From Verrucomicrobiota bacterium (GTDB lineage: Bacteria; Verrucomicrobiota; Verrucomicrobiia; Chthoniobacterales; UBA10450), in NCBI GenBank assembly GCA_041167585.1, contig JBEEHV010000005.1:13883-77882 (forward strand): a DNA stretch of 64,000 nucleotides, written 5' to 3'. Positions 5,460 to 61,130 of the stretch are shown piece by piece (the stretch's first letter is position 1; the number at the start of each line of letters is the position of its first letter). The notes under the pieces are model-generated. The model ran no database searches, was not told where the DNA came from, and worked only from the letters and a program-made list of their open reading frames with translations. The position numbers and the translations under genes are program-made.

Positions 5460-5513
5460 CCTCTCTTCGCGACTGAAGTGCCCTGAGCCGACCCAGACTT
5501 TACGAAGTAGCGC

Positions 5514-31738: not shown

Positions 31739-33466
31739 TTAGGAGTTTGTTTGTGCTGGAATCGAAAAATAGAATGTTGCGCCGGCGCCCACCACGCCTT
31801 CGGCCCAGACCCGGCCCCCGTGGCGGTGAATGATGCGCTGGACGCTGGCCAGGCCGATGCCGGTGCCTTCAAACTCGGCGACGGTGTGTAACCGTTGGAA
31901 GACTCCAAACAGTTTGCTGACATACCGCTGGTCAAAGCCCGCGCCGTTGTCGCGAACGAAGATCACCGTTTCATTATCGCCATTAGGAACGGAGCCGATC
32001 TCAATCCTGGTCTCGGGGTTATGGGAGGTAAACTTGATCGCGTTGGAAATCAGATTGCCTAACACCAGGCGCAACAAGGCCCGATCGCATTCGATCACGG
32101 GCAGCGGGGTGATCTCCCAATCGACATCGCGCCCTTCCAGGTCGCCCTTGAAATCGCCCAGCGTCTCCCGAACCAGGCCATCGAGATTGACCCGGCTCTT
32201 TATCATTTCCGAACGTCCGATCTGTGAGAACGACAGCAGGTCGTCAATCAAACTTCCCATCCGTTTGGCCGACCTGGAAATGGTGGCCAGATGGCCCAGG
32301 CCTTTTTCCGAAAGTGAAGACCCCGCCTCTCGCTGGAGCAGTTCCACAAAACCAATCACGTGGCGCAAAGGCGCACGCAGATCGTGGGAGACCGAGTAAC
32401 TGAAAGCTTCCAGTTCGGCGTTCAGCTCGATGATCCGCTTCTCTACCCGCTTTCGGTCCATGATGTCTCGCGCCACCTTCGACGCTCCCACGATCCTGCC
32501 AGCCGAATCCTTGATGGCAGAAATAGTGATGGAGACGTCTATTTGCTGGCCGTTCTTTGCCACCCGCACCGTATCAAAGGGCCGTACGCTCTCGTCCCGC
32601 TTGATCTTTTCGAGAATTTCCTTCTCTTCATCAAGCCGTCCCACGGGAATCAAAGGCGCAATCGGGCGGCCTACCATTTCGGCTGCGGTATACCCAAAAA
32701 TTTTCTCGGCGCCGCCGTTCCAGGTTTGGATGATGCCCTCCAGATCCTTCCCGATAATCGCGTCTTCCGAGGATTCCACGATTGCCGCCAGCCGGAGGGC
32801 CGTTTTCTCGGCCTGCCTGCGTTCGGTTGTGTCGCGGATGTTGCACTGGATAAGGCGTTTTTCGCCCTCAAGGTAGGCGTTGCTGATGAATTCAACTTCG
32901 ACCCGCTGCCCATCCTTGGTTTCCAACGGCAAACCTTCATAGCGAAGACGGTCATTGAGCTGGAGTTCGGCGAAGGCGACTTTGGAAGCAGCCTCGCCTT
33001 TGAAGGGGCCGATGTCCCACAGCTTGCGCCCGAGAAACTCCTCCTGCGAATAACCTAGCAGAGCTTTCATGAACGGATTGGCGTCCACCACCTGCCCCGT
33101 TCCCGCATCGAGAATGAGAATGCCGTCCTGCGCCGTTTCAAACAGCCGCCGGTAGCTGATTCCGGAGTCGAGGAGGGCTTGGACGCTGCGCGCCTCGGCG
33201 TGTTCGGTCCGGGTATTAGCTTCGTTCGTCCGGAGATTTGCCTGGTCCGTCCGAGTGTTGGCTTGCTCCGTTCGATTGTTGGCTTGCTCTGTCCGAGTGT
33301 TGGCTTGCTCCGTTCGCGCCTCGGCCTGTCTCGCTCGAGTATTTGCCTGATCCACCAGGATCTCCGCCCGCTCCTCGCGAGGCAAACCGGGGCCTGAGTT
33401 TTCCGCTAATCCTGTGGAAGCTCCGGCTTTTTCGTTCGTTGTTACCACGCTACCCCTGCGTAGCAC
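31739..33466 (-). CDS. cytoplasmic sensor histidine kinase: heptad-repeat N-terminus + 2 PAS + HisKA + HATPase_c (module B, paralog of 23081..24952)
   Basis: QANTRARQAEARTEQANTRTEQANNRTEQANTRTDQANLRTNEANTRTEHAEARS, then the same SYRRLFE..GILILDA PAS start as module A. H-box: FSYSVSHDLRAPLRHV. Confidence 0.9.
   Translation of the reverse strand: MLRRGSVVTTNEKAGASTGLAENSGPGLPREERAEILVDQANTRARQAEARTEQANTRTEQANNRTEQANTRTDQANLRTNEANTRTEHAEARSVQALLDSGISYRRLFETAQDGILILDAGTGQVVDANPFMKALLGYSQEEFLGRKLWDIGPFKGEAASKVAFAELQLNDRLRYEGLPLETKDGQRVEVEFISNAYLEGEKRLIQCNIRDTTERRQAEKTALRLAAIVESSEDAIIGKDLEGIIQTWNGGAEKIFGYTAAEMVGRPIAPLIPVGRLDEEKEILEKIKRDESVRPFDTVRVAKNGQQIDVSITISAIKDSAGRIVGASKVARDIMDRKRVEKRIIELNAELEAFSYSVSHDLRAPLRHVIGFVELLQREAGSSLSEKGLGHLATISRSAKRMGSLIDDLLSFSQIGRSEMIKSRVNLDGLVRETLGDFKGDLEGRDVDWEITPLPVIECDRALLRLVLGNLISNAIKFTSHNPETRIEIGSVPNGDNETVIFVRDNGAGFDQRYVSKLFGVFQRLHTVAEFEGTGIGLASVQRIIHRHGGRVWAEGVVGAGATFYFSIPAQTNS
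33188..33361 (-). repeat. 21-bp tandem repeat (about 8 units) encoding the heptad TEQAN(T/N)R
   Basis: Residues 36-93 of the 31739..33466 protein. Repeat-shaped ORFs on the + strand (33179..33397, 33238..33630) mirror it. Confidence 0.85.
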
Positions 33467-36162: not shown

Positions 36163-36234
36163 GCACGCCGGGAACGCTGGTCTACCTCCAAACTTTCCAA
36201 GAGATCCAGGGGCTTTAACAACTGTTAGTTTACA

Positions 36235-36351
36235 GTTAGCGAGCGCTACGACCTTGCCGCGTCACGCGCGTGTGGCTGCAAGTGGAAGGTCGTAGCTACT
36301 CTCAGCGGGGAAACAGAGCGGGGCGCGGTTAGCTGCATCGCTTGGTTAGAT
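36235..36351 (-). repeat. distal, atypical attC-like site of array A
   Basis: Minus-strand read: ATCTAAC-CAAGCGATGCAGC... central 11-bp stem (36245-36255 / 36286-36296) ...GCGCTCGCTAAC. The R'' arm is typical, but the R' end reads CTCGCTAAC in place of CTCGTTAGG. Confidence 0.45.
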
Positions 36352-36369
36352 GGTTGGTCGTGAGACAAA

Positions 36370-37005
36370 CTACTTCTCCGGGTTTTCTAGTGCGCTCGGC
36401 CCGCGCTTTGCGACCGCCACGCCAAGGCCGGCTAGCCCAACGCTGAAGATCCCGTTGGCGATGATGGCCCCCCACGCATGAAGCGGACTCGCCTGAAGAA
36501 GCGGGATTAAGACCAACCCGGCCGCGGCTGCGATTGCAGCCCACCGCGGAAGAATCCCGGTTCGCCAGACACTGATCGCCAGCAGCAGCCATCCCAGCGC
36601 AAACACTCCGGCGGCCGAAGCGAAACCGATACTGGTCAACGGGTGCTTATCGATCGCACTGAGTGCCGCGAGGTTAATCCCAGCGAGCGGGTAAAAAACA
36701 AAAACATCGGTGAATTCCACTGCAAAGAGGAGGCAGCTTCCGATAAAAGCAAAAACAAATGAGACGGCACCAAACCGGCCAGCGCGATCCCTCTGCATTA
36801 GGTGCACTCCGAGCGACCCGAAGATCAACATCAACGCGGCCAGGCCCGAGAGTGACTGCCGAAACAAAAATAGACCCGTTGTCTCAGGAGGAATGCCTAA
36901 GCTGCGACTGTGAAACATCAGCGGCGCGATGATAGCATTGACGGCTAGCGTCAAAAGGGCGCCACACAACAACCCGATGCCGCAAGGTCGTAGAAAGGTC
37001 TTCAT
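36370..37005 (-). CDS. cassette ORF: polytopic membrane protein, function unknown
   Basis: About 6 hydrophobic helices. ATG at 37005 (MKTFLRPCGIGLLCGALL). The ORF is open up to 37089. Confidence 0.65.
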   Translation of the reverse strand: MKTFLRPCGIGLLCGALLTLAVNAIIAPLMFHSRSLGIPPETTGLFLFRQSLSGLAALMLIFGSLGVHLMQRDRAGRFGAVSFVFAFIGSCLLFAVEFTDVFVFYPLAGINLAALSAIDKHPLTSIGFASAAGVFALGWLLLAISVWRTGILPRWAAIAAAAGLVLIPLLQASPLHAWGAIIANGIFSVGLAGLGVAVAKRGPSALENPEK

Positions 37006-37143
37006 GATCGCCAGTTTGGGTGTGAGCTGGCGCGGGCGGCCCGTTTCAGCATGCATCATCACCACCACTGAGATGCAGCCATCGGCCAATCCGGATTCAA
37101 GTAAATGAGCAGAAGCGCGCCTCGTGCAGACGGGGCTTTGAGC

Positions 37144-37210
37144 ATCTAACGAGACACAAGATGAGCGACTCCGAAAGCTTTCGGAGTTCGCTGCATCGCC
37201 TGGTTAGGCC
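37144..37210 (-). repeat. attC site (67 bp, short form)
   Basis: Minus-strand read: GCCTAAC-CAGGCGATGCAGCGAACTCCGAAAGC/GCTTTCGGAGTCGCTCATCTTGTGTCTC-GTTAGAT. It is a near-perfect hairpin with a single unpaired A in GCGA[A]CTCC. Confidence 0.75.
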
Positions 37211-37311
37211 TTGTTGTCGCCATCATCTGCTCGACCCCAGCGCCACGTTGCGGTTGCCTTCGTCCGAGTGGTTGGCCGCGCTCCTCCGCCAGCGGCATGC
37301 GGACCTTCATG

Positions 37312-37722
37312 TCACGGCGAGGCCGGCGGCAGGAACTTGTTCATCTTCTGCGCCACCTCCATCGACCCGCCGACCTTGAGCTTACGGGTCAGGAACGCCT
37401 TGGCGCCGTTGAGATCGCCGTTGGCGAGTTGGACGAAGTCGGCCCCCTTCATCTTGTACGTCACCGTCGGAGCCGCCGCGGCGCCCGGCTGGACGGCGAT
37501 GTTGCCGTCGGCGATCGTCACCGTCCAGGTGCCGGCGCCTTCCAGGTCGTACACGACGGTCGCGTGCACGCCTCTCGCCTGTGCCGGGATGAAGCGGGCC
37601 TTGATCGTATCGAAGTATTCCTGGCAGCTCTCGATGCGTCGCATCTTCGGACTAGCGGCACAGCAAAGGCTGGCCACGGCGACGGAGATGAGCAGTGCGA
37701 GTAGGGTTGTTGTTCTTGTCAT
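37312..37722 (-). CDS. cassette ORF: secreted SCP2 sterol/lipid-binding domain protein
   Basis: Signal peptide: MTRTTTLLALLISVAVASLCCAAS. SCP2 C-terminal pattern: ADFVQLANGDLNGAKAFLTRKLKVGGSMEVAQKMNKF. Confidence 0.8.
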   Translation of the reverse strand: MTRTTTLLALLISVAVASLCCAASPKMRRIESCQEYFDTIKARFIPAQARGVHATVVYDLEGAGTWTVTIADGNIAVQPGAAAAPTVTYKMKGADFVQLANGDLNGAKAFLTRKLKVGGSMEVAQKMNKFLPPASP

Positions 37723-37805
37723 GACGAGTATCCAGCGCCTGGGATTACGAGCCGGTCAAGTCGCGAAAACACGTAAATTCCTGATCGTGCGACATCTGGC
37801 TATCG

Positions 37806-37941
37806 ACCTAACGAGAATGGAACGGACTGGCAAGCCGTGACATAGACTTCAAGCCCGCAGGGTAAACGAGTCGCGCGAGTGCATCAACAAGATCAGCGAC
37901 TCAGAAAGCTTTGGGAGTTCGCTGCATCGCCTGGTTAGGTC
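37806..37941 (-). repeat. attC site (long form, about 136 bp, with an internal degenerate R'-like box at about 37862)
   Basis: Minus-strand read: ACCTAAC-CAGGCGATGCAGCGAACTCCCAAAGCTTTCTGAGTCGCTGATCTTGTTGATG...CTCGTTTACC...GTCCGTTCCATTCTC-GTTAGGT. Confidence 0.65.
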
Positions 37942-38566
37942 TTTGTGGCTCTACGCGATGTGTCAACCACATGAACAACTCGCGAGGCTCGTAGCTAAAT
38001 CGTATCGAAATAGATGGTGCTGTCCATTCACGCACAATGTGCGGCGAGCGACCAGTCTCGGTGTACGTCGGCTTGATTCTGTGATCCGCAAACCAGTCAT
38101 TCACTCGTTGCGTAAGTTCTGGGTGATCTTTGCTCGCGGTGTAAACGATCTCTTCAGATACGAGCCGATCGCGGCGCAGCCACTGTTCGTACTCTATGCT
38201 CCTCGGGCGTGCGAGGACTGGATACGAGACAAGAAGTGGTGTGAACGGCTGCCGAAAGCTTCGCATATCCGAAGATCGCCTGCTCCATGTCGCGCTGTCG
38301 CTGTGATATCGAAAGCGACAGGTGGTGCACGTGGGTAGAACTGTCGGAGAGCCCGGTTCGATTTCGCAGCCGCCGAGAATGAAATCAAGATTCTTAACGT
38401 GGCGCTCGATCTCTTTGGGATCCATCACGGACAAGCCGTAGTGAATCGGAACGTCTTTGAGAGTGGCATGCCCGTTCGGGCATCGTTTGAGGTCGGCGCT
38501 CTTGACCTCAGCCGAGGCAATAATCGGAAGGAGCAGGAGTAATGGGGCAAGTGCGCTGCGCATCAT
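37901..38566 (-). CDS. cassette ORF: secreted hypothetical protein (221 aa); last 12 codons lie inside the attC
   Basis: Signal peptide: MMRSALAPLLLLLPIIASA. The C-terminal ...RPNQAMQRTPKAF is the translation of CCTAACCAGGCGATGCAGCGAACTCCCAAAGCTTTCTGA. Confidence 0.7.
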   Translation of the reverse strand: MMRSALAPLLLLLPIIASAEVKSADLKRCPNGHATLKDVPIHYGLSVMDPKEIERHVKNLDFILGGCEIEPGSPTVLPTCTTCRFRYHSDSATWSRRSSDMRSFRQPFTPLLVSYPVLARPRSIEYEQWLRRDRLVSEEIVYTASKDHPELTQRVNDWFADHRIKPTYTETGRSPHIVREWTAPSISIRFSYEPRELFMWLTHRVEPQRPNQAMQRTPKAF

Positions 38567-38568
38567 AG

Positions 38569-38601
38569 ACCTAACGATAATAAGATGAGCATGGTTAGAC
38601 C
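38569..38601 (-). repeat. attC remnant (33 bp; both core boxes, centre deleted)
   Basis: Plus-strand read: ACCTAACGATAATAAGATGAGC|ATGGTTAGACC. It sits between the stop of 38604..38942 and the start of 37901..38566. Confidence 0.5.
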
Positions 38602-38603
38602 TC

Positions 38604-38942
38604 TCACCTAAAATTTTCCAAAAAGCCGTCGATGCCGCCGGAGATCAGAAACCAAACTTTGATGACTTTGCCGTTGCGGAGGCGAACTTCATATACGTCA
38701 TATCTCTTCTTGCCGGGCGGAACTACTAGCGCTTGGCTGAGAACCTTCGACTTCGGATATTTCTGCGCGATCCAAGCGTAGGCGGATTGCTCGACCCCAA
38801 CGACTAGAACTGCCTTTTCAGGGGAGCTGCCGTCACCACCATAGTAGCCCGGTTTAGTGTTGCTATAGTCGGGTCCGCTGTCAGCCCTTGCGCAGCCGAT
38901 CGCGGAGCAACAAATCAACGCAAGAATGAGTAGTGTGCGCAT
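38604..38942 (-). CDS. cassette ORF: small lipoprotein (112 aa)
   Basis: ATG at 38942 gives MRTLLILALICCSAIGCA, a lipobox-type signal. The upstream TTG-extended part of the ORF is the translated attC. Confidence 0.7.
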   Translation of the reverse strand: MRTLLILALICCSAIGCARADSGPDYSNTKPGYYGGDGSSPEKAVLVVGVEQSAYAWIAQKYPKSKVLSQALVVPPGKKRYDVYEVRLRNGKVIKVWFLISGGIDGFLENFR

Positions 38943-38944
38943 AG

Positions 38945-39105
38945 GTCTAACGAGACCAAGACGAGCGACGGCTGGCGGGGGCGTGCTTTCGCTTCGGTTT
39001 TCTACTTTCAATTTTCACATTTCGCCTTCCACTGATGCCAGTCCTTTGCTGTCCTTTGGCCCGCTCAGGACCTTGAGCAATCGAAACGGCATCGCTTGGT
39101 CGGTC
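38945..39105 (-). repeat. attC-like site, long and degenerate at the R'' end
   Basis: The R' end GTCTAACGAGACCAAGACGAGCGACGGC (plus-strand read) is typical. The other end reads GCATCGCTTGGTCGGTC instead of GCATCGCCTGGTTAGGTC. Confidence 0.45.
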
Positions 39106-39120
39106 CCTTTCGCGCAGCCG

Positions 39121-39576
39121 TTATCTGTCGCGAAACCCCATGATGCTAGGGCCAGCCTTCTCCATCCCGTTGTCGTTGCCTAGCGTGGACCCTCGGCCAG
39201 TGAAATTGATCGGTATGTTGTAAAAAGGTCCTGGTCGGCCTGGTCTTGCGCGCCATTCTCGTAAGGCCTCGACGCTGGCATGATCAAGTATCTTGCTGCC
39301 CGAAGTGTCTGCCAGCTCGACTCGAGCGACCGTCCCGTCCGCGTTTAGAGTCACACGGCAGACGGCCCGCCCTTCGATGCGCCTCGACCCGGTGCTCGTG
39401 CGCACCCAAGCGTCTATAGGGTAGCGGGGCGGCGGCATGTAGGTAAACACATCGCTAAGGCGCTTCAAGGTATCAGCTGGAGCGGTTGCCACGATAATGA
39501 GCAGCATGAGAGAGATGACGGCCCGCTGCAAATGGCCCCATTTGGAATGTATCGCGTGTTTGGTGGCGTCTTGCAT
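39121..39576 (-). CDS. cassette ORF: TonB C-terminal-domain-like protein with N-terminal anchor
   Basis: ATG 39576 (MQDATKHAIH..AVISLMLLIIVA). C-terminal YPIDAWVRT..GRAVCRVTLNADGTVARVELADTSGSKILDHASVEALREWRARP resembles TonB_C. Confidence 0.65.
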   Translation of the reverse strand: MQDATKHAIHSKWGHLQRAVISLMLLIIVATAPADTLKRLSDVFTYMPPPRYPIDAWVRTSTGSRRIEGRAVCRVTLNADGTVARVELADTSGSKILDHASVEALREWRARPGRPGPFYNIPINFTGRGSTLGNDNGMEKAGPSIMGFRDR

Positions 39577-39578
39577 AA

Positions 39579-39628
39579 GCCTAACTACAATTAGACGAAA
39601 CGAAGTTTCGTCTACTTCGGCGTTGTTC
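39579..39628 (-). repeat. proximal short attC-like site / R' box of the first cassette of array A
   Basis: Plus-strand read: GCCTAAC-TACAAT-TAGACGAAAC-GAA-GTTTCGTCTA-CTTCGGC-GTTGTTC. The R' box and a 10-bp stem are clear; the partner box GTTGTTC is poor. Confidence 0.4.
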
Positions 39629-39747
39629 GACGGAAGTGCTCTGGTAAAGCGAAAGGGGAACCATTGCCCATTCGTAACCGCAGCTCTCCAGGGTCGGCAA
39701 GCCCAAACTCCTCGATCGGGTGCGCGCACGATTAGCAGCCGCGACCC

Positions 39748-40398
39748 TCACAGCTCGATAAGATGGTGGCGGATGGCGTACCGAACCAGGCCCGCCATCG
39801 ACTTCGCGCCTAGCTTGCGCATGAGCGTGGCCCGATGAGTTTCCACTGTGCGAATTTTCAGGCGAAGCGCCGCGGCCACCTCTTTGTTGCTGCTGCCTTG
39901 AGCGAGCAGGCGCACGATTTCCCGTTCGCGCGTGGTCAGCCTTAGGTCAGCCCGGCTCTGTTGTTTTCGGGCGGGCTGCAGGAATTTTGTGAAAAGCACG
40001 TCTGATGCTTCGGCGGTGAAGAAAGGCTTGTGTTCCGCTAACGACTTGATGGCAGTAATCAGATGCCGGTTGGCGTCAGTCTTTTCAATGTAGCTCTTGG
40101 CGCCTGCTTCAAATACTTCCTCGACCAGGTCCTTCGCGCTATGGCCGCTGAACGCCAGGACTTCCGTGTTCGGGAGCTCTTTTCTGATCTGGCCGATCGC
40201 GGCTAGTCCATCCAGTCCCGGCATCGTGAGATCAAACACCACCACATCGGGCTTCGTTTTGAGGGCGCGCTCGACTGCTTCATGTCCGTTCGTGGCCACA
40301 CCGCAAACTTCGAGATCGGGTTGACGTGCGATCAAGGCGCGGACTCCCTCCACCACCACATCATGATCGTCCGCGATTAATACTCTTACTGCCCGCAT
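39748..40398 (-). CDS. NarL/LuxR-family response regulator (orphan; paralog of 27697..28380)
   Basis: REC: VLIADDHDVVVEGV, VVVFDLTMPGLDG. HTH: LTTREREIVRLLAQGSSNKEVAAALRLKIRTVETHR. Confidence 0.9.
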   Translation of the reverse strand: MRAVRVLIADDHDVVVEGVRALIARQPDLEVCGVATNGHEAVERALKTKPDVVVFDLTMPGLDGLAAIGQIRKELPNTEVLAFSGHSAKDLVEEVFEAGAKSYIEKTDANRHLITAIKSLAEHKPFFTAEASDVLFTKFLQPARKQQSRADLRLTTREREIVRLLAQGSSNKEVAAALRLKIRTVETHRATLMRKLGAKSMAGLVRYAIRHHLIEL

Positions 40399-40506
40399 CT
40401 TGAAAATTGAATCTACCTGAGTCCATGCTGGCTAAGGGTTGGGGTGAAATTCTGGATTCCTGCCAGGTGCTGCGGACGTTCTTGGTTCGCCATTAACTTG
40501 AAGCGG

Positions 40507-40773
40507 TCATCCCTGAGCATGAGCCAGGCGCAGGGCCATAAGAGGTGAGGTTACGGGCGGCAATTCCAGCATGGTCACTCTCGCTTCTACCCCTTCGAGC
40601 CACGCATAGCAGCGCCGGGCCGCGACGAAGCCGAAGAGGTCGAACACTTCGACCACGCCCTCCCACAACTCCTCGCCGAAAATCTCGCACACCGCCGCCG
40701 AGCGGATGTGCTCGGCGCGACATTGGTAATTGAGTTCGACGGCCTCTTTAAGATCTTCCAAGGGCTGATTCAT
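40507..40773 (-). CDS. small conserved-looking hypothetical protein (88 aa)
   Basis: ATG start with balanced composition. It lies between the FN3 gene and the LuxR regulator on the same strand. No motif was recognised. Confidence 0.55.
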   Translation of the reverse strand: MNQPLEDLKEAVELNYQCRAEHIRSAAVCEIFGEELWEGVVEVFDLFGFVAARRCYAWLEGVEARVTMLELPPVTSPLMALRLAHAQG

Positions 40774-40847
40774 CAGGTCCGGTTTCGGAGAGGGAGAGGA
40801 CGGCGGCTTACCCCAGAATTCTGGCCGCCGTCCCCGTTTTTTCGCAG

Positions 40848-41789
40848 CTACGCAGTGAAAGTCGATTTGTTGCTCGCCGGGCCTTCGCCGCGCGAGTTAA
40901 CGCCCACCACCCACACCATGTAAGTCACCCCAGGCGTGAGCGGAGCAAGACCCACCACCGAGACTGTGGTCGTGGTGGAGACACCGGCGTCCGTCTCGGG
41001 CCCGCCGGCCGGTTGACGCTTGGCGCGAAGGAAAGTGGCGTGCGCGGGCATGGCCGGAATGGTCAGCTCTCGCGTCCCGGCATTGAAGGGTGCGGCGCCA
41101 GGCGCATCGGGCAGCGGCTGCGGTTGCGCGTCGCCCGGGGCGCGTTTCGGTTGCATGTTGATCTTGGCCAGTTCCAGGGTCCGCTCGCCGTCGTCACTGG
41201 CGCTGCAATAGAACAGCCGCACCCGTGAGTTGGCGTCCTCCAGCTTCTCGCGCGAATCGTCCCGAGCCTGGATGAGCGTCTGTCGACTTCCGCCGGTGGC
41301 CAGCAGCGAGGCGGCGTCGAATACGGCCAGCCAGTTCGCGATCCGCCCGGCCAATGAGGCCGGATACTTGCCGGCAGTGGGAACACTCGGGTCGGCCGTG
41401 GCGCTGGCGGCGAGATTCGCGAGCGATTCCGTGCGGGTAATATCGAGATCGCCGATCTTGCCGCCCGTCCAGCCGTAGGCCGTGTAAGCCTGAAGGCGCT
41501 CGGCGTCGGTGATATCGTCGCTGGCTACGGCGCCGATGGCGTTGAACCCGTTGCGGAGGAGCTCGCCCAGCCGCTCGAGCGCTTGCTTGCGTTGCTCCGA
41601 CGCGCCCACGGTAGCGCCCTCCATAATGGTCGCGGCCGCGTTTTTGCCTTTGGTATCGGCCAGCCGGGTCGTGACCAGCGGGTTGAGGGTGGCGCTGAGT
41701 TTGAAGGGATCAGCGGCCGTGCGGGCCGTGTCTACCTGGAGAATGAGTTCTGCCGTTTCGATAGCTTCGAGGGTTCTGCGATCTGCCAT
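40848..41789 (-). CDS. hypothetical protein with helical N-terminal region and C-terminal fibronectin type III-like domain
   Basis: The last roughly 90 aa (LTIPAMPAHATFLRAKRQ...VSVVGLAPLTPGVTYMVWVVGVNSRGEGPAS) fit an FN3 beta-sandwich. There is no signal peptide. Confidence 0.7.
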   Translation of the reverse strand: MADRRTLEAIETAELILQVDTARTAADPFKLSATLNPLVTTRLADTKGKNAAATIMEGATVGASEQRKQALERLGELLRNGFNAIGAVASDDITDAERLQAYTAYGWTGGKIGDLDITRTESLANLAASATADPSVPTAGKYPASLAGRIANWLAVFDAASLLATGGSRQTLIQARDDSREKLEDANSRVRLFYCSASDDGERTLELAKINMQPKRAPGDAQPQPLPDAPGAAPFNAGTRELTIPAMPAHATFLRAKRQPAGGPETDAGVSTTTTVSVVGLAPLTPGVTYMVWVVGVNSRGEGPASNKSTFTA

Positions 41790-42057
41790 GTGATAATCCT
41801 TTCTGGGATTGTTTGGGGTTAGGGGTGCGTTGAGGGGCTCTACTGGTAACTACGATGTCTGCCCGGCTAAGTTGGGAAATTTTTTCGCGGCCACTCTTGA
41901 GCCCCACGGATGCCGACGCGATCGGCGCCGCTGCTGGAATGATGACGCAGCTGCTTTTTCCCCAATCCGCTGCTGCTGGAAAAAGAAAACAACTGGCGTG
42001 AACCCTTCCTCGTTCCACTCCCGCCAGCCCCGCGCTGCGGCGCTACGTTGGGCGCGT

Positions 42058-42483
42058 TCCTGGAACGATCTGCGCGCTCCAGTTTCGCGCGATGCTCTTT
42101 CCTGACGCGAGACCAGGGGTCGCGCAGGGAGTCGTCCGCGCTCCTGCAATTACGTCCCAGCTTCGTCAAGACGCGCGGGTTGCTGCACTCCGGACATCCG
42201 GGAATGCGTCCGACGATTTACCGCGCCGATTCTGGATGTCAGGAAAGGAGCAAAACCTTTTCCCCGGCCGAGTCTGGACGTCCGGAAACCGGCCGGGAAA
42301 CTTCCCGCGGCGACTCCAGACGTGCCGACAGGAGTACCGGATTTTCGTTTCCGCGTTCCTGATATCGATACAGGAGCAAAACTTTCCCCCGCGCCAGTCT
42401 CGGACGTCAGTGCAGGAGCACGGAACGTTGTCTGGCGACCATCCACGAGGGAAAACCGCCTTTTTACGTTAGACGTTACCTAT
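42058..42483. repeat. array of about 10 degenerate tandem units with 42-bp phasing, each headed by a TCYGGA-YR-TCMGGA box
   Basis: Box starts: 42058, 42100, 42142, 42189, 42231, 42273, 42315, 42357, 42398, 42442. Spacings: 42, 42, 47, 42, 42, 42, 42, 41, 44. Best boxes: TCCGGACATCCGGG, TCTGGATGTCAGGA, TCTGGACGTCCGGA. An inner AGGAGCAAAAC..TTTCCCC motif recurs. Confidence 0.75.
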
Positions 42484-42813
42484 TTATCGCCTCGCGCTGG
42501 CTCCCATCAAACGTTCCCAGTCCCCGAGGTCGCCGCCATATCCGAGATCGCAGGCTTTCTGCCACGTAAAACGAGCCTCGCGCTCGTGTCGTTTTCCACT
42601 TTTGGTGTCGGGCATGTTCCGGTATTGCCGGCGGGCGATGAAGATATGGACTGCCAGCGGGTCGTGCTCCGCTCGCATTTCCTCGACCACTCGTTCCACC
42701 TCGTTGATCGCCGCGGTAAGCCGGTCCAGGGCGTTTTCGAGCTGATTGGAACGCATTGTGTTCAGTTGAACATCTGCTAGTTTGGAAGTCAATTTGGTCT
42801 GCGCATTGCCCAT
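42484..42813 (-). CDS. hypothetical protein (109 aa; alternative start 42756)
   Basis: ATG 42813 (MGNAQTKLTS...) or ATG 42756 (MRSNQLENALDRL...). It has a coiled N-terminus and then RFTWQKACDLGYGGDLGDWERLM. It is divergent from the 42840 operon. The upstream part of the ORF is Cys/Leu-rich and was rejected. Confidence 0.5.
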   Translation of the reverse strand: MGNAQTKLTSKLADVQLNTMRSNQLENALDRLTAAINEVERVVEEMRAEHDPLAVHIFIARRQYRNMPDTKSGKRHEREARFTWQKACDLGYGGDLGDWERLMGASARR

Positions 42814-42839
42814 CACCGGAGATGGGCATACAGAAACAT

Positions 42840-43037
42840 ATGGCAAAAGACACAGGCAAAGGATCACGCAAAGGGGCGGTGAAAGCCCGCACGCAATCGA
42901 ACAACCCGAAGACAAAAGACTGGACCAAACGGAACGAAACGCCCGGCAGCAAAAAGCGCGGCGAGTTCATGAACGTGAAGAAAGACGGCAAGCCCTTCAA
43001 AGGCGTCGCTAAAGAGCCGGATAAACGGAGAAAATGA
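42840..43037 (+). CDS. small basic protein (65 aa), first gene of the TIR-like operon
   Basis: MAKDTGKGSRKGAVKARTQSNNPKTKDWTKRNETPGSKKRGEFMNVKKDGKPFKGVAKEPDKRRK. The stop is 1 nt before the next ATG. It resembles a widespread small K/G-rich protein type, from memory and unverified. Confidence 0.55.
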   Translation: MAKDTGKGSRKGAVKARTQSNNPKTKDWTKRNETPGSKKRGEFMNVKKDGKPFKGVAKEPDKRRK

Positions 43038-43038
43038 T

Positions 43039-44151
43039 ATGGCGAAGAAACCCGAAAAAGAACCCTCAAAACGTCGTAACTTTCCGTTCCACACACTGGA
43101 AGACGCGTTACCCGTCGCGCAAAAGGTCGCCGACGAAAGGGGTGGTCAACCATTCAAACGCCTTTTGCTTTCCGATGCTCTCGGAATCAAGCCAAGCAGC
43201 AGCAACTATCGCGATTTGCTAAGTTCCTCTTTCAAATACGGTCTGACCGACGGTACTGAAAAAGCCTCAGAGATTCTTCTTACTGAGCTTGGCGCACGAG
43301 CGACGCAAACAACATCGCCGACCGACCGGATGAAGGCTTTACGTGAGGCCGCAATAAAGCCCGACGTCTTCAAACGGTTCTATACCGCATATCGAGAGCG
43401 GAAGTTGCCCTCGACGGAAATGTTCCCGAAGATCCTCAACGCCGATTTTGGAGTGCCGTTGGAGCATGCAGGCGAGTGCGCCCGTTTCATAGAGCAGAAC
43501 GGTAGATTCGTTCAGATCGTCCGCGATATCGGCGGGTCTCCCCATGTCCTGTTAGATTTGGAAGCCGTTACAGACACCACTACTCAATCAAACGGGAAAG
43601 AAGACGAGCCGGAGGTGATGCCGGATACGCCTCCCCTTGATGCTGATGTTCCGCACCCCCCAGCCCCAGGCGCGTCACCATCCACACCGCCCCCACCGGA
43701 AAATGACAGTGCTCCGAAGCCGATTTTCATTGGACACGGGAAAGACAAGGTGCCCCTCCAAAAGCTTCAGGCGATTCTCACCACCTTCCGCATTCCGCAC
43801 CGAGTGACTGTAGATGAAGCGAACCTCGGCCGGCCTATCTCGCAGAAGGTGAAAGACACGATGATGCAATGCGGGTCGGCCATACTCATTTTCACCCGCG
43901 ATGAGAGATTTTTTGACGAGAATCAGCAAGAAATCTGGCGTCCCTCAGAGAATGTTGTCCACGAGCTTGGAGCGGCTTCATTCGCTTACGGAGATCGGAT
44001 AATGATTTTCAAAGAGAAGGGGCTGCATTTTCCCACGAACTTCCAGAACATCGGTTACATCGAATTCGAAGGACAAAACCTCGAGTCAAAGACCGCAGAC
44101 CTGTTGAAAGAGCTTATTGGTTTCGGCCTTGTAAAAATCACACCGGCTTAA
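43039..44151 (+). CDS. two-domain protein: uncharacterised helical (wHTH-like) N-domain, Pro-rich linker, C-terminal TIR-like nucleotide-binding domain (CAP12/Pycsar-effector, COG4271-type)
   Basis: The C-terminal 140 aa are PIFIGHGKDKVPLQKLQAILTTF...GSAILIFTRDE...RPSENVVHELGAASFAYGDRIMIFKEKGLHFPTNFQNIGYIEFE. This follows the FIxHGxD / hydrophobic-T.DD / R.NVxxELG / G..Y pattern of bacterial TIR-like effector domains. GGAG lies 9 nt upstream of the ATG. Confidence 0.8.
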   Translation: MAKKPEKEPSKRRNFPFHTLEDALPVAQKVADERGGQPFKRLLLSDALGIKPSSSNYRDLLSSSFKYGLTDGTEKASEILLTELGARATQTTSPTDRMKALREAAIKPDVFKRFYTAYRERKLPSTEMFPKILNADFGVPLEHAGECARFIEQNGRFVQIVRDIGGSPHVLLDLEAVTDTTTQSNGKEDEPEVMPDTPPLDADVPHPPAPGASPSTPPPPENDSAPKPIFIGHGKDKVPLQKLQAILTTFRIPHRVTVDEANLGRPISQKVKDTMMQCGSAILIFTRDERFFDENQQEIWRPSENVVHELGAASFAYGDRIMIFKEKGLHFPTNFQNIGYIEFEGQNLESKTADLLKELIGFGLVKITPA

Positions 44152-44177
44152 CCCGGTCTCCTCAATAGCCCCGCCCA

Positions 44178-45014
44178 GTGATGAGACGCCGCGAGTATCA
44201 TGATGGTGATGCGGTCGTGAACTTCATGGATTGCAGGTTCGAGAGTGACCTGCGAAAAGCAAAACTTCCAACCTTCCCTGACCAGCGGAAGCTAAAGACA
44301 TCGCAAGACGCGGCTCTTTGGATGTTGTGGGTGATGAGAGATTACTTCGGACATCACTCTCCAATGTACGCATCAGAATTGGCTCATTTGCTGGAACTAC
44401 GGGGGATAGCGGTCCGGGAAGATCAGCTTGAGCAGCTGCTAATGCGTGCAGGTAAGAAGATAATGAGAAAACGGTATGATGAAACGTCGACCGAGCTTGC
44501 ATATATGATCGCCGAAAAAGGGGTCGCATTTCTACAAGCGAAGTACTCGGCGACGGGAGTGCGAGCAATTATTATCGATGGCACACAGCCGTGGCGCGAC
44601 CGGCATGTTACCCTACCAACAATCGCTGAGCAGCTTTCCGGTCGGATCTGTGTCGTCGATAAGTATTACGGCCGCGGAACACTTGCGGTGTTATACCACT
44701 TCAGGCATGGGTCGCCGCTTCAGTTCCTCACCGCCCGAACGAGCGAGACGGCAGGCGCATTCGCGCGAGAACTAAGGGATTTCAAAAGAGAGAGTCCTAC
44801 GTTGGAGGTGCGCATTTTTCCGGACTCCGGCGAGTTACACGACCGCTATATCATCTCCGAGCACGCTTTGATTATCGTTGGCCATGGAATCAAAGACATC
44901 GGAACGAAAGAATCATTCCTGATTTTTCTCGAAGGCGACAGCACTTCGGAGTTGCGACAAACACTTCTCGAGAAGTTCAACCATCGATGGTCACAGTCGT
45001 ACGTTCCAACATAA
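44178..45014 (+). CDS. hypothetical protein with C-terminal PLD-like (MIT_C-type HDR...GxGxKD) module
   Basis: 278 aa (GTG 44178 or ATG 44181), 26 nt after the TIR-like gene. The C-terminus is LEVRIFPDSGELHDRYIISEHALIIVGHGIKDIGTKESFLIFL. The N-terminal half is wHTH-like (ASELAHLLELRGIAVREDQLEQLL). The domain call is tentative. Confidence 0.75.
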   Translation: MMRRREYHDGDAVVNFMDCRFESDLRKAKLPTFPDQRKLKTSQDAALWMLWVMRDYFGHHSPMYASELAHLLELRGIAVREDQLEQLLMRAGKKIMRKRYDETSTELAYMIAEKGVAFLQAKYSATGVRAIIIDGTQPWRDRHVTLPTIAEQLSGRICVVDKYYGRGTLAVLYHFRHGSPLQFLTARTSETAGAFARELRDFKRESPTLEVRIFPDSGELHDRYIISEHALIIVGHGIKDIGTKESFLIFLEGDSTSELRQTLLEKFNHRWSQSYVPT

Positions 45015-45188
45015 GTGAAACCCGCCAATTCTTGCAGCTGGGTCTGCGAAGCTCGTCACTCGCTGATCATTAAGTCCAGTGGGATTCGCCTCGGCTTATT
45101 TCCGCGGAGAATTGCATCCCTCTAGCTTTGTGATGAGCATGCTCGTGGAGGGCTTGCATTCAGACCTCGGCGGCAGCACCATGGCCGA

Positions 45189-45968
45189 ATGAAAACGTCC
45201 CCCCGCCTCGCTGGGATCATCCCCTTCACCTGCATTTTATTCCTCATCGCGCTCGCCCTGACAACGCCTTGCGTAACGGCAGGTGTCCCACAACCGAAGC
45301 TCTACGCGGCGCTCCTGGCCAAGGCCCGCGCGGGAACGCTCCGCGTCGTGCCCGGTGAAGCCCCGGCACCGCGCCCGTTGGCGATGGCTGCGGGAAAGCG
45401 CGCCGGTTCCGGCTCTGAGATTTTTCCGCCCACTTCTTATCGCGCGGCGGCGAAGACTTCGTTCGAATCGGGGCCGGTCGAAACGTTCGCCACACTCGAC
45501 GCGTTGTTCACGCCGCTCCCTGCGGATAGCAAGATGTCGAAGGATTTCCCGAAGCTGGTGGTGAAGAAAGGGAATGTAAGTCCCCGGGTCCCGTTGGAAA
45601 AACGGAACGTGAAGATACCGGCTTTCATCTATTGGGTCGCGCCAGAAAGCGATCACGATTTCCACGTGATCCTGGGGAGCACGTCGGAATTGACCTCGAC
45701 CACCAGATTCATGAACAGCGAGATTTCGGGCCTGCCTTCGGCCAACCCAACCAAGAGTCCCTTCCCGCAACGCCGCAGCGATATCCGGGCGATGCTCAAG
45801 AAGCACGAGAACGTTGACGGTCTTTTTGTGAAGCCGGTTCCCGTTAGCGTGACCGGCACGCTTCTGTGGGACGGCGAGCATCGCGCGCCCCACAACGTCG
45901 GCCCCGAGGGACTAAGGCCGACCAAGGCCTGGGAGATTCACCCGATCAAGCTTTTGGCGGAACGTTAG
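45189..45968 (+). CDS. secreted hypothetical protein (259 aa)
   Basis: Signal or anchor: MKTSPRLAGIIPFTCILFLIALALTTPCVTA. Its TAG stop lies inside the GTTAGCGAGC end of the distal attC remnant of array B. Confidence 0.7.
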   Translation: MKTSPRLAGIIPFTCILFLIALALTTPCVTAGVPQPKLYAALLAKARAGTLRVVPGEAPAPRPLAMAAGKRAGSGSEIFPPTSYRAAAKTSFESGPVETFATLDALFTPLPADSKMSKDFPKLVVKKGNVSPRVPLEKRNVKIPAFIYWVAPESDHDFHVILGSTSELTSTTRFMNSEISGLPSANPTKSPFPQRRSDIRAMLKKHENVDGLFVKPVPVSVTGTLLWDGEHRAPHNVGPEGLRPTKAWEIHPIKLLAER

Positions 45969-45998
45969 CGAGCCGTTCGCTGCATCGCCTGGTTAGAC
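45964..45998 (-). repeat. distal truncated attC (R''-L'' arm only), ends in GTTAGCGAGC like the distal site of array A
   Basis: Minus-strand read: GTCTAAC-CAGGCGATGCAGCGAACGGCTCGCTAAC. Confidence 0.5.
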
Positions 45999-46463
45999 GT
46001 TCCGCTGAGTCCACCATGAAACGATCTCGTGATCTGCGGCCATTTCTCTGCCGTGCTCCGCCCACCAATCCACGAGAAGCCATCGCACAGCATCGCCCAT
46101 CGAACACTGCGGGTGCGGAAACAAGGTCGTGCTAGCGGTCGTGAGCGTGTGAATGAACCAAGCAGCAGTCTCGGCTCGCTTGCGTAAGACTGAGAGGGCT
46201 TCCAGGCTGAAACCGTCCAAATCCACCTCGCCAGAAAGCGCGATGAGCGCGATGGCCGCCTCGACCTCCGGCAGGTAAGGCTTCTCTGCCTCCTCGATGC
46301 GCGAGATCAGGTCGTCGGAATCATCAACGTCTGATTCGTCGAACGTGTAGACACTAGGCGCTTCTCGCTTCTTCAGGTTGAAGATAAGAATGCCGTCGAA
46401 GTAGTGTTCGAGATCATACCACTGCCGAATCTGTTCGGACATGTTGTAGAAGGACTCGGACAT
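45993..46463 (-). CDS. cassette ORF: acidic hypothetical protein (156 aa)
   Basis: ATG 46463 (MSESFYNMSEQIRQWYDLEHYF...). It has a D/E-rich stretch, FDESDVDDSDDLISRIEEAE. The TAA stop is the TAA of the GTCTAAC box. Confidence 0.65.
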   Translation of the reverse strand: MSESFYNMSEQIRQWYDLEHYFDGILIFNLKKREAPSVYTFDESDVDDSDDLISRIEEAEKPYLPEVEAAIALIALSGEVDLDGFSLEALSVLRKRAETAAWFIHTLTTASTTLFPHPQCSMGDAVRWLLVDWWAEHGREMAADHEIVSWWTQRNV

Positions 46464-46478
46464 GCGCGTGGCTGTTAC

Positions 46479-46601
46479 GTCTAACGAGAACAAGATGGGT
46501 GACGGCGGACGAGACCGCCTGTCGCTCGGAGTGGATGTGAGGGAGTCATCTCAATAGCGGGCGCTCAACGGTCCGCCGTTCGCTCCATCGCCTGGTTAGG
46601 T
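46479..46601 (-). repeat. attC site (123 bp)
   Basis: Minus-strand read: ACCTAAC-CAGGCGATGGAGCGAACGGCGGACCG...CGTCCGCCGTCACCCATCTTGTTCTC-GTTAGAC. Confidence 0.8.
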
Positions 46602-47114
46602 CTGGTTGATCGGAGTGCCATTTACGTCGTAGATGCGCAGACGTGTCGGGATGCGCGCAGCTACTTCCGGCTGGCTGCCCACCTCAACAACCCACCGCTC
46701 GCCGCCAGCGACGATCTGCGCACAAAAGATGTCGACCTGGAGCTGGAGTTTCGACCCGAGTTGGTTGCAGTGAACTGTCGAAGTAGGTGGTGCCACTGTG
46801 AACTGAAAGCGCTCGAGTGCCTCGCGGGCGCTCTGCGAAACAATTTCCTCGCGACCCTCGTGCAAGAACGCACATCGCAATGCGTAGCAATCACGCCCAC
46901 TCAGGAAGACGTGGCGCTCACGATCTGGACCGATCTCGCGGATGTACTGAGGGCCGACGAAGCGATCAAACCACGCGACGTAACGATTCTGCGAGCCTGC
47001 CGCGGAATCTTCGAGCCAGCCGCAAATGTCCGGAACCACTAGAGCCGTGCTGAGAGCCGCGTACCAGTTCTGCTGCGCGACGGCTGCCGTTACTGATTGG
47101 AGTAGGTGTTGCAT
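46596..47114 (-). CDS. cassette ORF: hypothetical protein with Rx4H (HEPN-like) motif (172 aa)
   Basis: NWYAALSTALVVPDICGWLE ... LSGRDCYALRCAFLHEG, where RCAFLH is an R-x4-H motif. Predicted helical. The TAA stop is inside the ACCTAAC box. Confidence 0.7.
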   Translation of the reverse strand: MQHLLQSVTAAVAQQNWYAALSTALVVPDICGWLEDSAAGSQNRYVAWFDRFVGPQYIREIGPDRERHVFLSGRDCYALRCAFLHEGREEIVSQSAREALERFQFTVAPPTSTVHCNQLGSKLQLQVDIFCAQIVAGGERWVVEVGSQPEVAARIPTRLRIYDVNGTPINQT

Positions 47115-47121
47115 GTGAAAG

Positions 47122-47245
47122 CCCTAACGAGAACAAGATGAGCGACGGCGCACGAGAGCGCGTGTCGCTCGGAGTGAAAGTGTGGAAGCCATCTCAAAAG
47201 TTGAGCGCACAGCGGTCCGCCGTTCGCTCCATCGCATGGTTAGGC
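47122..47245 (-). repeat. attC site (124 bp)
   Basis: Minus-strand read: GCCTAAC-CATGCGATGGAGCGAACGGCGGACCG...GTGCGCCGTCGCTCATCTTGTTCTC-GTTAGGG. The arms GAGCGA[A]CGGCG and CGCCGTCGCTC pair with one bulged A. Confidence 0.8.
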
Positions 47246-47728
47246 CTTGTTGGGTGGAAGAGCAAAGCGTTGAGGCGCACTGCCGTCTTTGAAGTGGAGC
47301 AAGACAAAATGGTCAGACTCATGCCACTCCCACGTAAACTCGCCCTGGTAGTAAAGCGGGCTTGTGGTGAGGCGAATAGCTTTCTGGTCCGCGGCGCGAA
47401 AGAGAAAAACATGGAAGCCGTACTGATCCTTGCGCCACTCGGACTGGAAGTCGATATCCGCGTAGGCGGCGAGATCCTTGCTCGGCGACAGTGAAGAGGA
47501 CACGTAATACGAAACGCGTTGGTCGCGAAAATATAAGTAGTCGCCATGATAGACACTCTCAAATCCGCCGGTCATATACTCTGCGAGTCCGACGCGGCGA
47601 AAGCCGCCACCGAGGTCTTTGGTGTCCTCGACGACCGGGTGACCTGCGGTTGGTATGCGCGAGCTGTCCGTGCACTGCGCTAATAACAGAGCTGCAGAGA
47701 TCAGTGACATCGGGAGCGACGGCAGCAT
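47240..47728 (-). CDS. cassette ORF: probable lipoprotein (162 aa)
   Basis: ATG 47728 gives MLPSLPMSLISAALLLAQC. The TAA stop is inside the GCCTAAC box. The ORF is open up to 47776 through the R' half-site. Confidence 0.65.
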   Translation of the reverse strand: MLPSLPMSLISAALLLAQCTDSSRIPTAGHPVVEDTKDLGGGFRRVGLAEYMTGGFESVYHGDYLYFRDQRVSYYVSSSLSPSKDLAAYADIDFQSEWRKDQYGFHVFLFRAADQKAIRLTTSPLYYQGEFTWEWHESDHFVLLHFKDGSAPQRFALPPNKA

Positions 47729-47730
47729 GG

Positions 47731-47755
47731 GCCTAACGAGAAATGGACGTCCTAG
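47731..47755 (-). repeat. proximal R' half-site of array B (first recombination point; no recognisable R'' partner or attI/intI upstream)
   Basis: Minus-strand read: GGACGTCCATTTCTC-GTTAGGC, then CC-ATG. It closely resembles the R' end of the 37806 site (GTCCGTTCCATTCTC-GTTAGGT). Confidence 0.5.
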
Positions 47756-50370: not shown

Positions 50371-51021
50371 CTACGAGGTTCCGCTCGCGCTCTGGAGCTG
50401 TTTCACTTCCTGCTCGAAACATTCCGGACATGCGCCATGACTGAACCGGGTCCCGGTCTCTTTTTGAATGTAATTCTCGACCTGGTCCCAGCAGTCATGC
50501 TCATCCCGCACTTTCCGGCAATAGATGCAGATCGGGATTAACTCTTTCAATTTCCGGATCTCCGCGGTGTATTTCAGGATTCTTTCCGCCACCGCCAGCC
50601 GCATCCGAATCGCTTCGCGATCCAGCGGCTTGGTCAGGAAGTCATCAATTCCTGCCGCGCTCGCGAGTTTATAGTTAGCGGCGCTGGTGCGGTTCGCGGT
50701 GAGAAGGATGAAGTAGGTATAAGGCGTCTGCTCGCGGGCCCGCACTTTTTCGCAGAGGCCCAGGCCATCTAGTTTCGGCATCATCCAGTCACTCACGATC
50801 AAGCGCGCCGGTTCCTGGTCGAATTTATCCCAGGCCTCCCCGCCATCGCGAGCCAGCACCGGTTCGTAGCCAAACTTTGAAAGCGTAGCTTCCAGGATTC
50901 TCGCGCTGACCGGATCATCCTCGACAATGAGGATTCGGCTTCGCTCGGGCGCCAAGGCGGCCTGAAGCCGGCTCGGCAGCGCCAGGAAGCGTCCGCCGAA
51001 CTTATCGTCAGGGCCGGACAT
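50371..51021 (-). CDS. response regulator with Cys-rich C-terminal output motif (IPICxYCxKVRD...W...FSHGxCPEC)
   Basis: REC: ILIVEDDPVSARIL, LIVSDWMMPKLDG, TKP. Tail: LIPICIYCRKVRDEHDCWDQVENYIQKETGTRFSHGACPECF. Confidence 0.85.
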   Translation of the reverse strand: MSGPDDKFGGRFLALPSRLQAALAPERSRILIVEDDPVSARILEATLSKFGYEPVLARDGGEAWDKFDQEPARLIVSDWMMPKLDGLGLCEKVRAREQTPYTYFILLTANRTSAANYKLASAAGIDDFLTKPLDREAIRMRLAVAERILKYTAEIRKLKELIPICIYCRKVRDEHDCWDQVENYIQKETGTRFSHGACPECFEQEVKQLQSASGTS

Positions 51022-60973: not shown

Positions 60974-61055
60974 GCCAGGGTGGCGAAATTGGCAGACGCG
61001 CCAGACTTAGGATCTGGTGGAGCAATCCTTAGGGGTTCGAGTCCCCTCCCTGGTA
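60974..61055 (+). tRNA. tRNA-Leu (anticodon UAG), class II with long variable arm
   Basis: Hand fold: acceptor GCCAGGG/CCCTGGT (G1-U72 wobble); D arm GCG-AAATTGGCAGA-CGC; anticodon stem CCAGA/TCTGG with loop CTTAGGA; variable arm GGAGCAATCC; T arm AGGGG-TTCGAGT-CCCCT; discriminator A. CCA is not encoded. Confidence 0.85.
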
Positions 61056-61130
61056 CTAACTGTTCTTCCGGACGCGCATAGCTCCGACCTCTTCTGCGCG
61101 GCGCGGCCCGATGGAGGACGCGCCGAGCGC

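Follow-up and report, generated by a model that had tools for sequence, protein, structure and literature searches.

A non-coding 42-bp array of dyad boxes tied to one family of helical-FN3 protein genes in Verrucomicrobiota and Armatimonadota

A gap between genes in the window, by which we mean the whole 64-kb stretch of verrucomicrobial DNA that was analysed, contains short dyad boxes repeated at intervals of 42 bp. A sequence-only reading had noted ten such boxes and offered several uses for them, among them an iteron-like or partition-site-like array and a regulator array for the flanking genes. The locus raises the question of what kind of element this is, which gene it belongs to and what it could do for that gene. 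No description of such an array was found in the literature searched.

Periodicity, anatomy and non-coding nature of the array

The 42-bp-spaced array is confirmed as real. Recounting the ten box starts returned the coordinates as first given, with spacings of 42, 42, 47, 42, 42, 42, 42, 41 and 44 bp, six of the nine being exactly 42 bp. The periodicity also survives formal testing. The array region 42058-42483 matches itself with an identity of 0.414 for lag 42 and 0.421 for lag 84. Mononucleotide shuffles give 0.256±0.021, and their best value across all lags has a 99th percentile of 0.348; the lag-42 identity of the array corresponds to a z of ~7. Tandem Repeats Finder at default settings reported no repeat in the array, because the units are only ~60% alike, and with looser penalties it returned periods of 42, 84 and 126. 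A 42-nt unit profile used with nhmmer was too insensitive for gathering units across loci. Further peaks at lag 42, near positions 23100 and 33000 of the window, have nothing to do with the array and stem from histidine-kinase genes with 21-bp heptad repeats; the PAS histidine kinases at 23081-24952 (plus strand) and 31739-33466 (minus strand) begin with long heptad runs, RTEQAEA/NTRTEQA.

The array does occupy the span first assigned to it, 42058-42483, but that span starts too late. Sliding lag-42 identity is 0.37-0.63 over 41894-42356 and falls to background level outside, and the periodic signal extends from ~41900 to ~42420, its onset lying ~160 bp before the start originally proposed. 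Wrap-around alignment to the unit consensus recovers six good units (42166-42420), followed by ~6 decayed ones down to ~41900, the proximal half being almost unrecognisable as repeat units. We read the array in the orientation of its downstream gene, that is, on the minus strand of the window, where the core units start at 42420, 42378, 42336, 42294, 42252 and 42210. Every core unit has a positional orthologue in alignments with four related loci (L002, L003, L005 and L088; WIN denotes the copy in the window). The features of the array are as follows.

41900-42480, minus strand: whole 42-bp periodic non-coding array, ~12-13 units (sliding lag-42 identity; wrap-around alignment)
42166-42420, minus strand: array core, six well-preserved units, sense consensus TGCTCCTGTCCGGACGTCCAGAATCGGCCGGGGAAAAGTTTT (wrap-around alignment)
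42123-42165, minus strand: unit 7, with the motif pair in inverted order, GGGACGTAATTGCAGGAGC (inverted repeat I1; orthologue alignment)
42189-42202, no strand assigned: dyad box P1, TCCGGACATCCGGG, two mismatches to TCCGGACGTCCGGA (palindrome scan)
42231-42244, no strand assigned: dyad box P1, TCTGGATGTCAGGA, three mismatches to TCCGGACGTCCGGA (palindrome scan)
42273-42286, no strand assigned: dyad box P1, TCTGGACGTCCGGA, one mismatch to TCCGGACGTCCGGA (palindrome scan and orthologue alignment)
42315-42328, no strand assigned: dyad box P1, TCCAGACGTGCCGA, three mismatches to TCCGGACGTCCGGA (palindrome scan)
42294-42307, no strand assigned: second dyad P2, CGGGAA-AC-TTCCCG (read from the sequence; inverted repeats I3 and I7)

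The three dyads quoted in the sequence-only reading, and the conserved patch AGGAGCAAAAC..TTTCCCC that accompanies them, are present in the sequence. The boxes had been described as TCCGGA dyads separated by 2 bp; the dyads are there, but the box, which we call P1 and which has the 14-bp palindromic consensus TCCGGACGTCCGGA, is more accurately a 7-0-7 palindrome centred on YR (GAYRTC). At three or fewer mismatches, TCCGGACGTCCGGA has 12 matches in the 64-kb window against 5.7 expected, and four of these, at 42189, 42231, 42273 and 42315, stand exactly 42 bp apart. The box at 42273 is the most conserved among orthologues (GGACGTCCAGA). A second, weaker dyad, P2 (GGGAA-N2-4-TTCCC), is centred 19-21 bp from the P1 centre, and in the copy at 42294-42307 exactly 21 bp from the P1 centres on either side; it is homologous to the CCGGAA-N2-4-TTCCGG of L010, L013 and L093. 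Each 42-bp unit thus holds two dyads about two helical turns apart. The proposal that the dyad-symmetric boxes are helically phased on one face of the DNA fits the arithmetic, with 42 equal to 4 x 10.5 bp and the dyads ~21 bp apart.

Unit 7 matches unit 1 in reverse complement at 85% (I1, 42135-42160 against 42399-42424) and is the most conserved stretch of the array among orthologues. An architecture of two halves arranged head to head was considered and set aside, as clear inversion is confined to unit 7 and decay has obscured the proximal half. Long-range pairing of unit 1 with unit 7 was likewise dropped, covariation in L003 giving it no support.

The array is non-coding. In three orthologue comparisons, substitutions within it are distributed over the codon phases as 13/11/16, 22/23/29 and 20/14/10, whereas the adjacent gene gives 4/3/34, 25/20/150 and 27/22/93 in the same comparisons; array indels between orthologues are 1-2 nt long and not multiples of three. 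The flat phase profile and the frame-shifting indels uphold the original view that this is not a coding repeat, although the observation then attached to it, that all three plus frames are open, was mistaken: within 42058-42483 each plus frame has one stop, at 42103, 42360 and 42470. We consider a coding role, in which the array would specify a peptide or protein of tandem 14-residue repeats (xPDVxxGxKxxPxx), extremely improbable. Long stop-poor frames do cross it on both strands, with PDV or PDI every 14 codons, and gene callers sometimes predict ORFs over it. But it is solely the palindromic nature of CCGGACGTC that puts PDV on both strands, the repeat frame lacks a start codon, and the stops, the lack of codon-phase bias and the shifts of frame, including a 1-nt indel inside the array between L003 and L005, all speak against translation. 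A CRISPR array was also rejected, the units being ~60% alike throughout and the parts between boxes themselves homologous; Pfam scans of the ORFs flanking the array found no cas domains.

A two-part module and its distribution

Similarity between loci starts abruptly at AAGTCTnnCGTAAAAAGGCGsTTTTTCCCTCGTG (42443-42476), with complete divergence upstream, continues unit by unit through the array and through the gene at 40848-41789, and stops past a hairpin at 40798-40833, which in L003 is followed by a T-run. Judged from these alignments, array and gene are the two halves of one module, the array being the conserved upstream one. The parts of the module outside the array are listed here.

42443-42476, minus strand: conserved 5' boundary of the module, sense ACGTCTAACGTAAAAAGGCGGTTTTCCCTCGTGG, with an A5-N5-T5 motif inside (orthologue alignments)
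41847-41874, minus strand: candidate sigma-70-like promoter CAACTT-N16-TAGTTA, between array and gene (inferred)
40848-41789, minus strand: module gene, 313-aa protein (weak Pfam fn3 match, homologues, AlphaFold2, Foldseek)
40798-40833, minus strand: conserved terminator-like hairpin GGACGGCGG...CCGCCGTCC at the 3' end of the module (alignment)

Of the flanking genes that the array had been suggested to serve, the FN3 gene is co-conserved with it in every close homologue and in some distant ones, but the ORF at 42484 is not. Sequence similarity ends at ~42480, before this 91-aa ORF (42484-42759) begins. The further suggestion of a link to the LuxR regulator at 39748-40398 or to the 42484 ORF finds no backing, as neither adjoins the module in any other locus. 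We accordingly discarded both as module partners: the LuxR-type response regulator lies outside the module and is not conserved beside it, and the 91-aa ORF is not conserved beside it either. Across 23 array-bearing loci, no conserved neighbour gene of the module was found. At the 5' edge itself, the A5-N5-T5 motif (AAAAAGGCGGTTTT, 42443-42465) has a variable centre flanked by runs of A and T that are preserved in nearly all five orthologues; its possible roles include those of a bend, a weak hairpin or a promoter component.

Between array and gene, a sAAyTT-N16-TAkTnA pattern is weakly conserved, being kept in WIN, L002, L003 and L005. A simple sigma-70 consensus scan of the same interval found no canonical promoter. 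A sigma-54 promoter was rejected after the proximal regions were read and yielded no consistent GG-N10-GC element. ECF promoters usually have a spacing of 21-22 nt, and an ECF-type promoter in each unit (GGAAC...CGT) was rejected because its spacing would be 17-18 or 25 nt.

In the 313-aa module protein, an acidic, all-helical domain at the N terminus is joined through a Pro-rich linker to an FN3 domain at the C terminus. The protein has more than 166 homologues of ~312-314 aa, found in soil and freshwater Verrucomicrobiota, Planctomycetota and Armatimonadota. AlphaFold2 predicts the full protein with a pLDDT of 88.7 and the N-domain alone, as eight helices, with a pLDDT of 91.4. Pfam returns only a weak, sub-threshold fn3 match, the NCBIfam, PHROG and PADLOC collections gave no match, and no relatives were found among IMG/VR viral contigs. 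Foldseek matches cover the FN3 part only, the N-domain having no match in the PDB at E<0.3; as modelled, this domain appears to be a new helical fold with no structural match. Its acidity (pI 4.6-5.4) makes it no obvious nucleic-acid binder.

Relatives had been put forward as a place to look for the array, and it is present upstream of every close homologue of the module gene. Within the clade (56-98% amino-acid identity) it lies directly upstream of the gene in 15 of 15 loci, set in unrelated neighbourhoods; the homologue loci compared are 98, 87, 86, 79, 72, 71, 69, 69, 68, 67, 67, 66, 65 and 56% identical. In the five loci scanned window by window it occupies approximately -690 to -180 relative to the start codon. 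Arrays with a period of 42 (43 in L041) also precede distant members of the family at 36-51% identity (L016, L017, L023, L035, L038-L041, L075 and L076, some labelled Chthoniobacter or Armatimonas). These distant array-bearing members belong to Verrucomicrobiota and Armatimonadota, and in them the box sequence has changed and the period has been kept: boxes read GCCGACAATTGTCGGC plus TTCCGA-N3-TCGGGGAA in L076, TTCCGGTTGCGG in the Armatimonas loci and ACACACGTCGCCG in L041. The arrays of L010 and L076 are homogenised, with lag-42 identities of 0.74 and 0.69 and Tandem Repeats Finder unit identities of ~75% and 66%, respectively, which points to ongoing turnover rather than simple decay. Orientation is kept even where array and gene are separated, by a PEP-CTERM gene in L024, where the array is still upstream, and by 3 kb in L013. 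In the genomes compared, the array is demonstrably and strictly tied to one gene family in both position and orientation.

In two Chthoniobacterales/Spartobacteria genomes the array sits amid PEP-CTERM protein genes (L024, 2561-3113; L030, 3187-3727), and the PEP-CTERM gene between array and family gene in L024 hints at a cell-surface role of the family. In L047, which carries a 56%-identical homologue, purine-rich 7-bp microsatellites (GGCGGAG and GATGAAA, at 2520-2880) replace the array upstream of the promoter.

A large sister clade (~43-55% identity; Planctomycetota- and Verrucomicrobiota-labelled genomes) has no array; in its stead, an ordinary cTTGCc-N17-TAnnnT promoter stands 40-90 bp from the ATG. 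Expression as such can therefore do without the array. Between WIN and L003, the core array has diverged by 30%, against 48% at third codon positions; between WIN and L002, the closest pair, the array evolves no slower than synonymous sites. We take the array to be under some constraint.

The surroundings of the module in the window are those of an integron. Positions 36230-47750 form a minus-strand cassette array with at least nine attC sites of one family (CTAACCAGGCGATGsAGCGAAC...CATCTTGTTCTCGTTAG), each 60-125 bp long. No integrase was detected in the ORFs adjacent to this cassette array, which looks like either an integrase-lacking attC cluster or a section of a large chromosomal integron with its integrase beyond the window. 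The L005 module is bounded on both sides by attC sites of this same family, making it a 2.1-kb cassette (4802-7062) that consists of ~375 bp of unrelated sequence followed by the 42-bp array, the gene, the terminator and an attC; to our knowledge, few cassettes have so long a non-coding 5' part. An attC also follows the module in L003, L067 and L069, and none was found at the array-bearing loci L002, L007, L009 and L010. The attC sites flanking or following the module in L005, L003, L067 and L069 indicate that the module is mobile integron-cassette cargo in this lineage.

Other parts of the window hold features of their own. At 43039-45014, on the plus strand and thus opposite to the cassettes, a gene for a TIR-domain protein (Pfam CAP12/Pycsar-type TIR; PADLOC candidate PDC-S35) precedes one for a PDC-S05-like protein, a possible anti-phage defence pair within the cassette region. 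A tRNA-Leu gene (60974-61056) is matched 2.4 kb downstream by a 55-nt, 96% identical copy of its 3' half (63432-63486), and the two bracket a pair of paralogous minus-strand ORFs (61131-62516 and 62525-63367), a layout such as a small element integrated at a tRNA would leave. A 2229-aa ORF on the minus strand (52342-59031) has internal repeats at ~370-1250 bp spacing and is flanked by stand-alone response-regulator genes that share DNA blocks (50371-51021, 51296-51865 and ~59700).

That the array is itself an integron recombination element, an attC- or attI-like site or its remnant, is very improbable. The array shares with the local attC sites a genomic setting, within a cassette array and, in L005, within a cassette bounded by attC sites, as well as imperfect palindromy. 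In addition, the string ACGTTAGACGTTAC at 42466-42479, which had been likened to the R' end of a nearby attC, holds a GTTRRRY-type core. However, that core (GTTAGAC, 42468-42474) reads on the plus strand and every local attC site on the minus strand. The string is part of the conserved 5' sequence of the module, AAGTCTnnCGTAAAAAGG, and differs in orthologues, which read CGCCAGAC, CGCGAGAC or CCGCATAA. The true attC sites belong to a different and well-conserved sequence family and are single sites of 60-125 bp, not a tandem array, and the array also occurs at loci without any attC (L002, L007 and L010). The resemblance of ACGTTAGACGTTAC to an attC end is coincidental.

Possible functions of the array

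Our leading reading, which we hold tentatively and with somewhat less than even confidence, is that the array serves as a docking platform for a dimeric DNA-binding regulator that controls the module promoter. In this model, the module would be ordered as array, promoter region, helical-FN3 gene and terminator, with the array acting in cis as a set of double-stranded-DNA sites. Two dyads in each 42-bp unit would present ~12-24 sites on one helix face over ~0.5 kb, onto which a dimeric, trans-acting DNA-binding protein could load cooperatively. The bound protein would then activate or silence the module's own promoter, which we infer to lie between array and ATG, and expression of the gene would be regulated wherever the module lands, even deep within integron cassette arrays.

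Several observations are consistent with this operator model. The sites are dyad-symmetric and stand at whole-turn spacing (21 bp from P1 to P2, 42 bp from unit to unit), a conserved promoter-like element lies between array and ATG, and a terminator follows the gene. Multi-operator and upstream-activating-site promoters (for example, ARG-box and NarL 7-2-7) likewise have short dyads at whole-turn spacing upstream of a promoter, with half-sites suited to a dimeric helix-turn-helix protein. By contrast, known cases have 2-6 sites within <150 bp, whereas this array would have ~12-24 over ~500 bp and is a true tandem repeat. Such a length is very large for a bacterial promoter and counts against the model, as do the lack of a conserved neighbour gene, the acidic module protein with no recognisable DNA-binding fold, the array-free sister clade, and the WIN-L002 comparison, in which the array changes no more slowly than synonymous sites.

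Alternatively, the array could be transcribed as a ~0.7-kb 5' leader of the FN3-like mRNA, its repeated hairpins or GGA motifs acting as RNA, perhaps by capturing an RNA-binding protein or through control of stability or translation, as CsrB-type sponges or leaders do. We regard this as unlikely, although it is a serious contender. The sharply conserved boundary motif just upstream of unit 1 could be a promoter, and the scan's failure to find a canonical sigma-70 promoter between array and gene means that the array could lie inside the transcript. The arrays fold more stably than shuffled sequence on either strand, with z-scores of -8.3/-7.4 in L010 and -5.7/-3.7 in L005, values for which composition confounds the comparison of strands, and the P1 box of L010 can be drawn as UUUCC-GGACGU-GGAAA, with GGA in the loop. 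Other evidence points to DNA. The dyad symmetry passes through the centre of the boxes (ACGT, AATT, AACGTT), which favours double-stranded DNA because an RNA hairpin loop would not require it, and orthologous boxes show a symmetric double change from GACGTC to GATATC (CG to TA) with GAYRTC intermediates. P1 boxes have a mean of 3.05 Watson-Crick pairs of 7, compared with 1.0-1.75 when the partner columns are slid, and their mismatches have no strand bias (G:T 30, A:C 37), so that there is no excess of G:U over A:C. With the five alignable orthologues, RNAalifold returned an unfavourable covariation term for each strand (+6.7 and +5.7), giving support on neither. Many dyad centres, at 0-2 nt, are unable to form RNA loops, and one unit is inverted in the window and one in L075/L038. 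No Rfam family covers the array: with Rfam 15, only tRNA passes the gathering threshold in the window, and the best sub-threshold match over 41700-42600 (E=0.14) is irrelevant. Symmetry through the centre, the absence of a G:U bias relative to A:C and the absence of covariation favour an array of double-stranded-DNA sites over an RNA element.

The array might instead have no function, being a decaying minisatellite that had a single origin upstream of the gene and is simply carried along with it; we think this distinctly unlikely. The ~60% likeness of the units, the nearly unrecognisable proximal half, the lack of extra conservation relative to synonymous sites between WIN and L002, and the absence of the array from the entire sister clade would all suit such a relic. 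It would not explain why the period and the dyad character persist across phyla, down to 36-40% protein identity, with the box sequence replaced, why the L010 and L076 arrays continue to turn over, why individual boxes are conserved among orthologues, or why at greater distances the core array diverges more slowly than synonymous sites. An architectural site of the centromere or iteron kind, on which a nucleoprotein complex would form for partition, replication or DNA organisation with the module protein as a possible partner, is improbable in our view. The closest parallel is sopC of the F plasmid, in which a 43-bp unit is directly repeated 12 times and SopB binds a 16-bp inverted repeat in every unit (PMC3177203). 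The geometry of the array is almost the same (~12 tandem units of 42-43 bp, each with a 14-16-bp inverted repeat with 7-bp arms; period 42 and a 14-bp palindrome in the best units here), and in both cases the repeats adjoin a gene and travel together with it. The array departs from sopC, however, in its chromosomal (on a 674-kb Verrucomicrobiota-like metagenome contig) or integron-cassette location, in its second dyad per unit, in its position upstream rather than downstream of the associated gene, and in its degenerate units, the sopC repeats being near-identical. The earlier suggestion of an iteron or partition-like site also lacks support: Pfam scans of the flanking ORFs found no parA or parB (sopA/sopB), no ParA/ParB or Rep gene occurs in the window region or at any locus, the module has no conserved neighbour, and its protein is acidic and lacks a DNA-binding fold. 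The iterons of theta-replicating plasmids are 17-22-bp repeats at ~22-bp spacing next to a rep gene. Like them, the array consists of helically phased direct repeats beside a gene for a ~300-aa protein, and its repeat sequence varies by lineage as if co-evolving with a binder; unlike them, it has a period of 42 rather than ~22 bp, dyad sites and a chromosomal context, with no AT-rich unwinding element or DnaA boxes noted. Plasmid iterons were rejected on the adjacent protein, which in the AlphaFold2 model is a helical bundle plus FN3 and not a winged-helix Rep fold. REP/BIME elements offer a further likeness, with up to ~12 imperfect intergenic palindromes clustered in both orientations, but REPs are dispersed genome-wide, usually 3' of genes, whereas the box here is not above chance elsewhere in the 64-kb window and is tied to one gene family.

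We also give a small chance to a more integrated arrangement, in which array and helical-FN3 protein would form a hitherto undescribed two-part mobile module. The repeats, as DNA or RNA, would be the site at which the protein assembles, either by itself or via a host adaptor. The outcome would be a large nucleoprotein structure, such as a scaffold, a decoy, or a centromere-like or packaging complex, and the module would spread among Verrucomicrobiota, Planctomycetota and Armatimonadota, partly as integron cassettes.

Implications for the family and for integron cassettes

If the array is a platform for a regulator, it would count as an operator region of unusual size built from tandem repeats, and the module would be a case of an integron cassette equipped with an elaborate control region of its own rather than dependent on the integron promoter. 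More broadly, the array provides a handle on a widespread, uncharacterised protein family that combines a helical fold with an FN3 domain. The replacement of its boxes from lineage to lineage, with the 42-bp period kept, may amount to a natural experiment in which an array of sites co-evolves with its binder.
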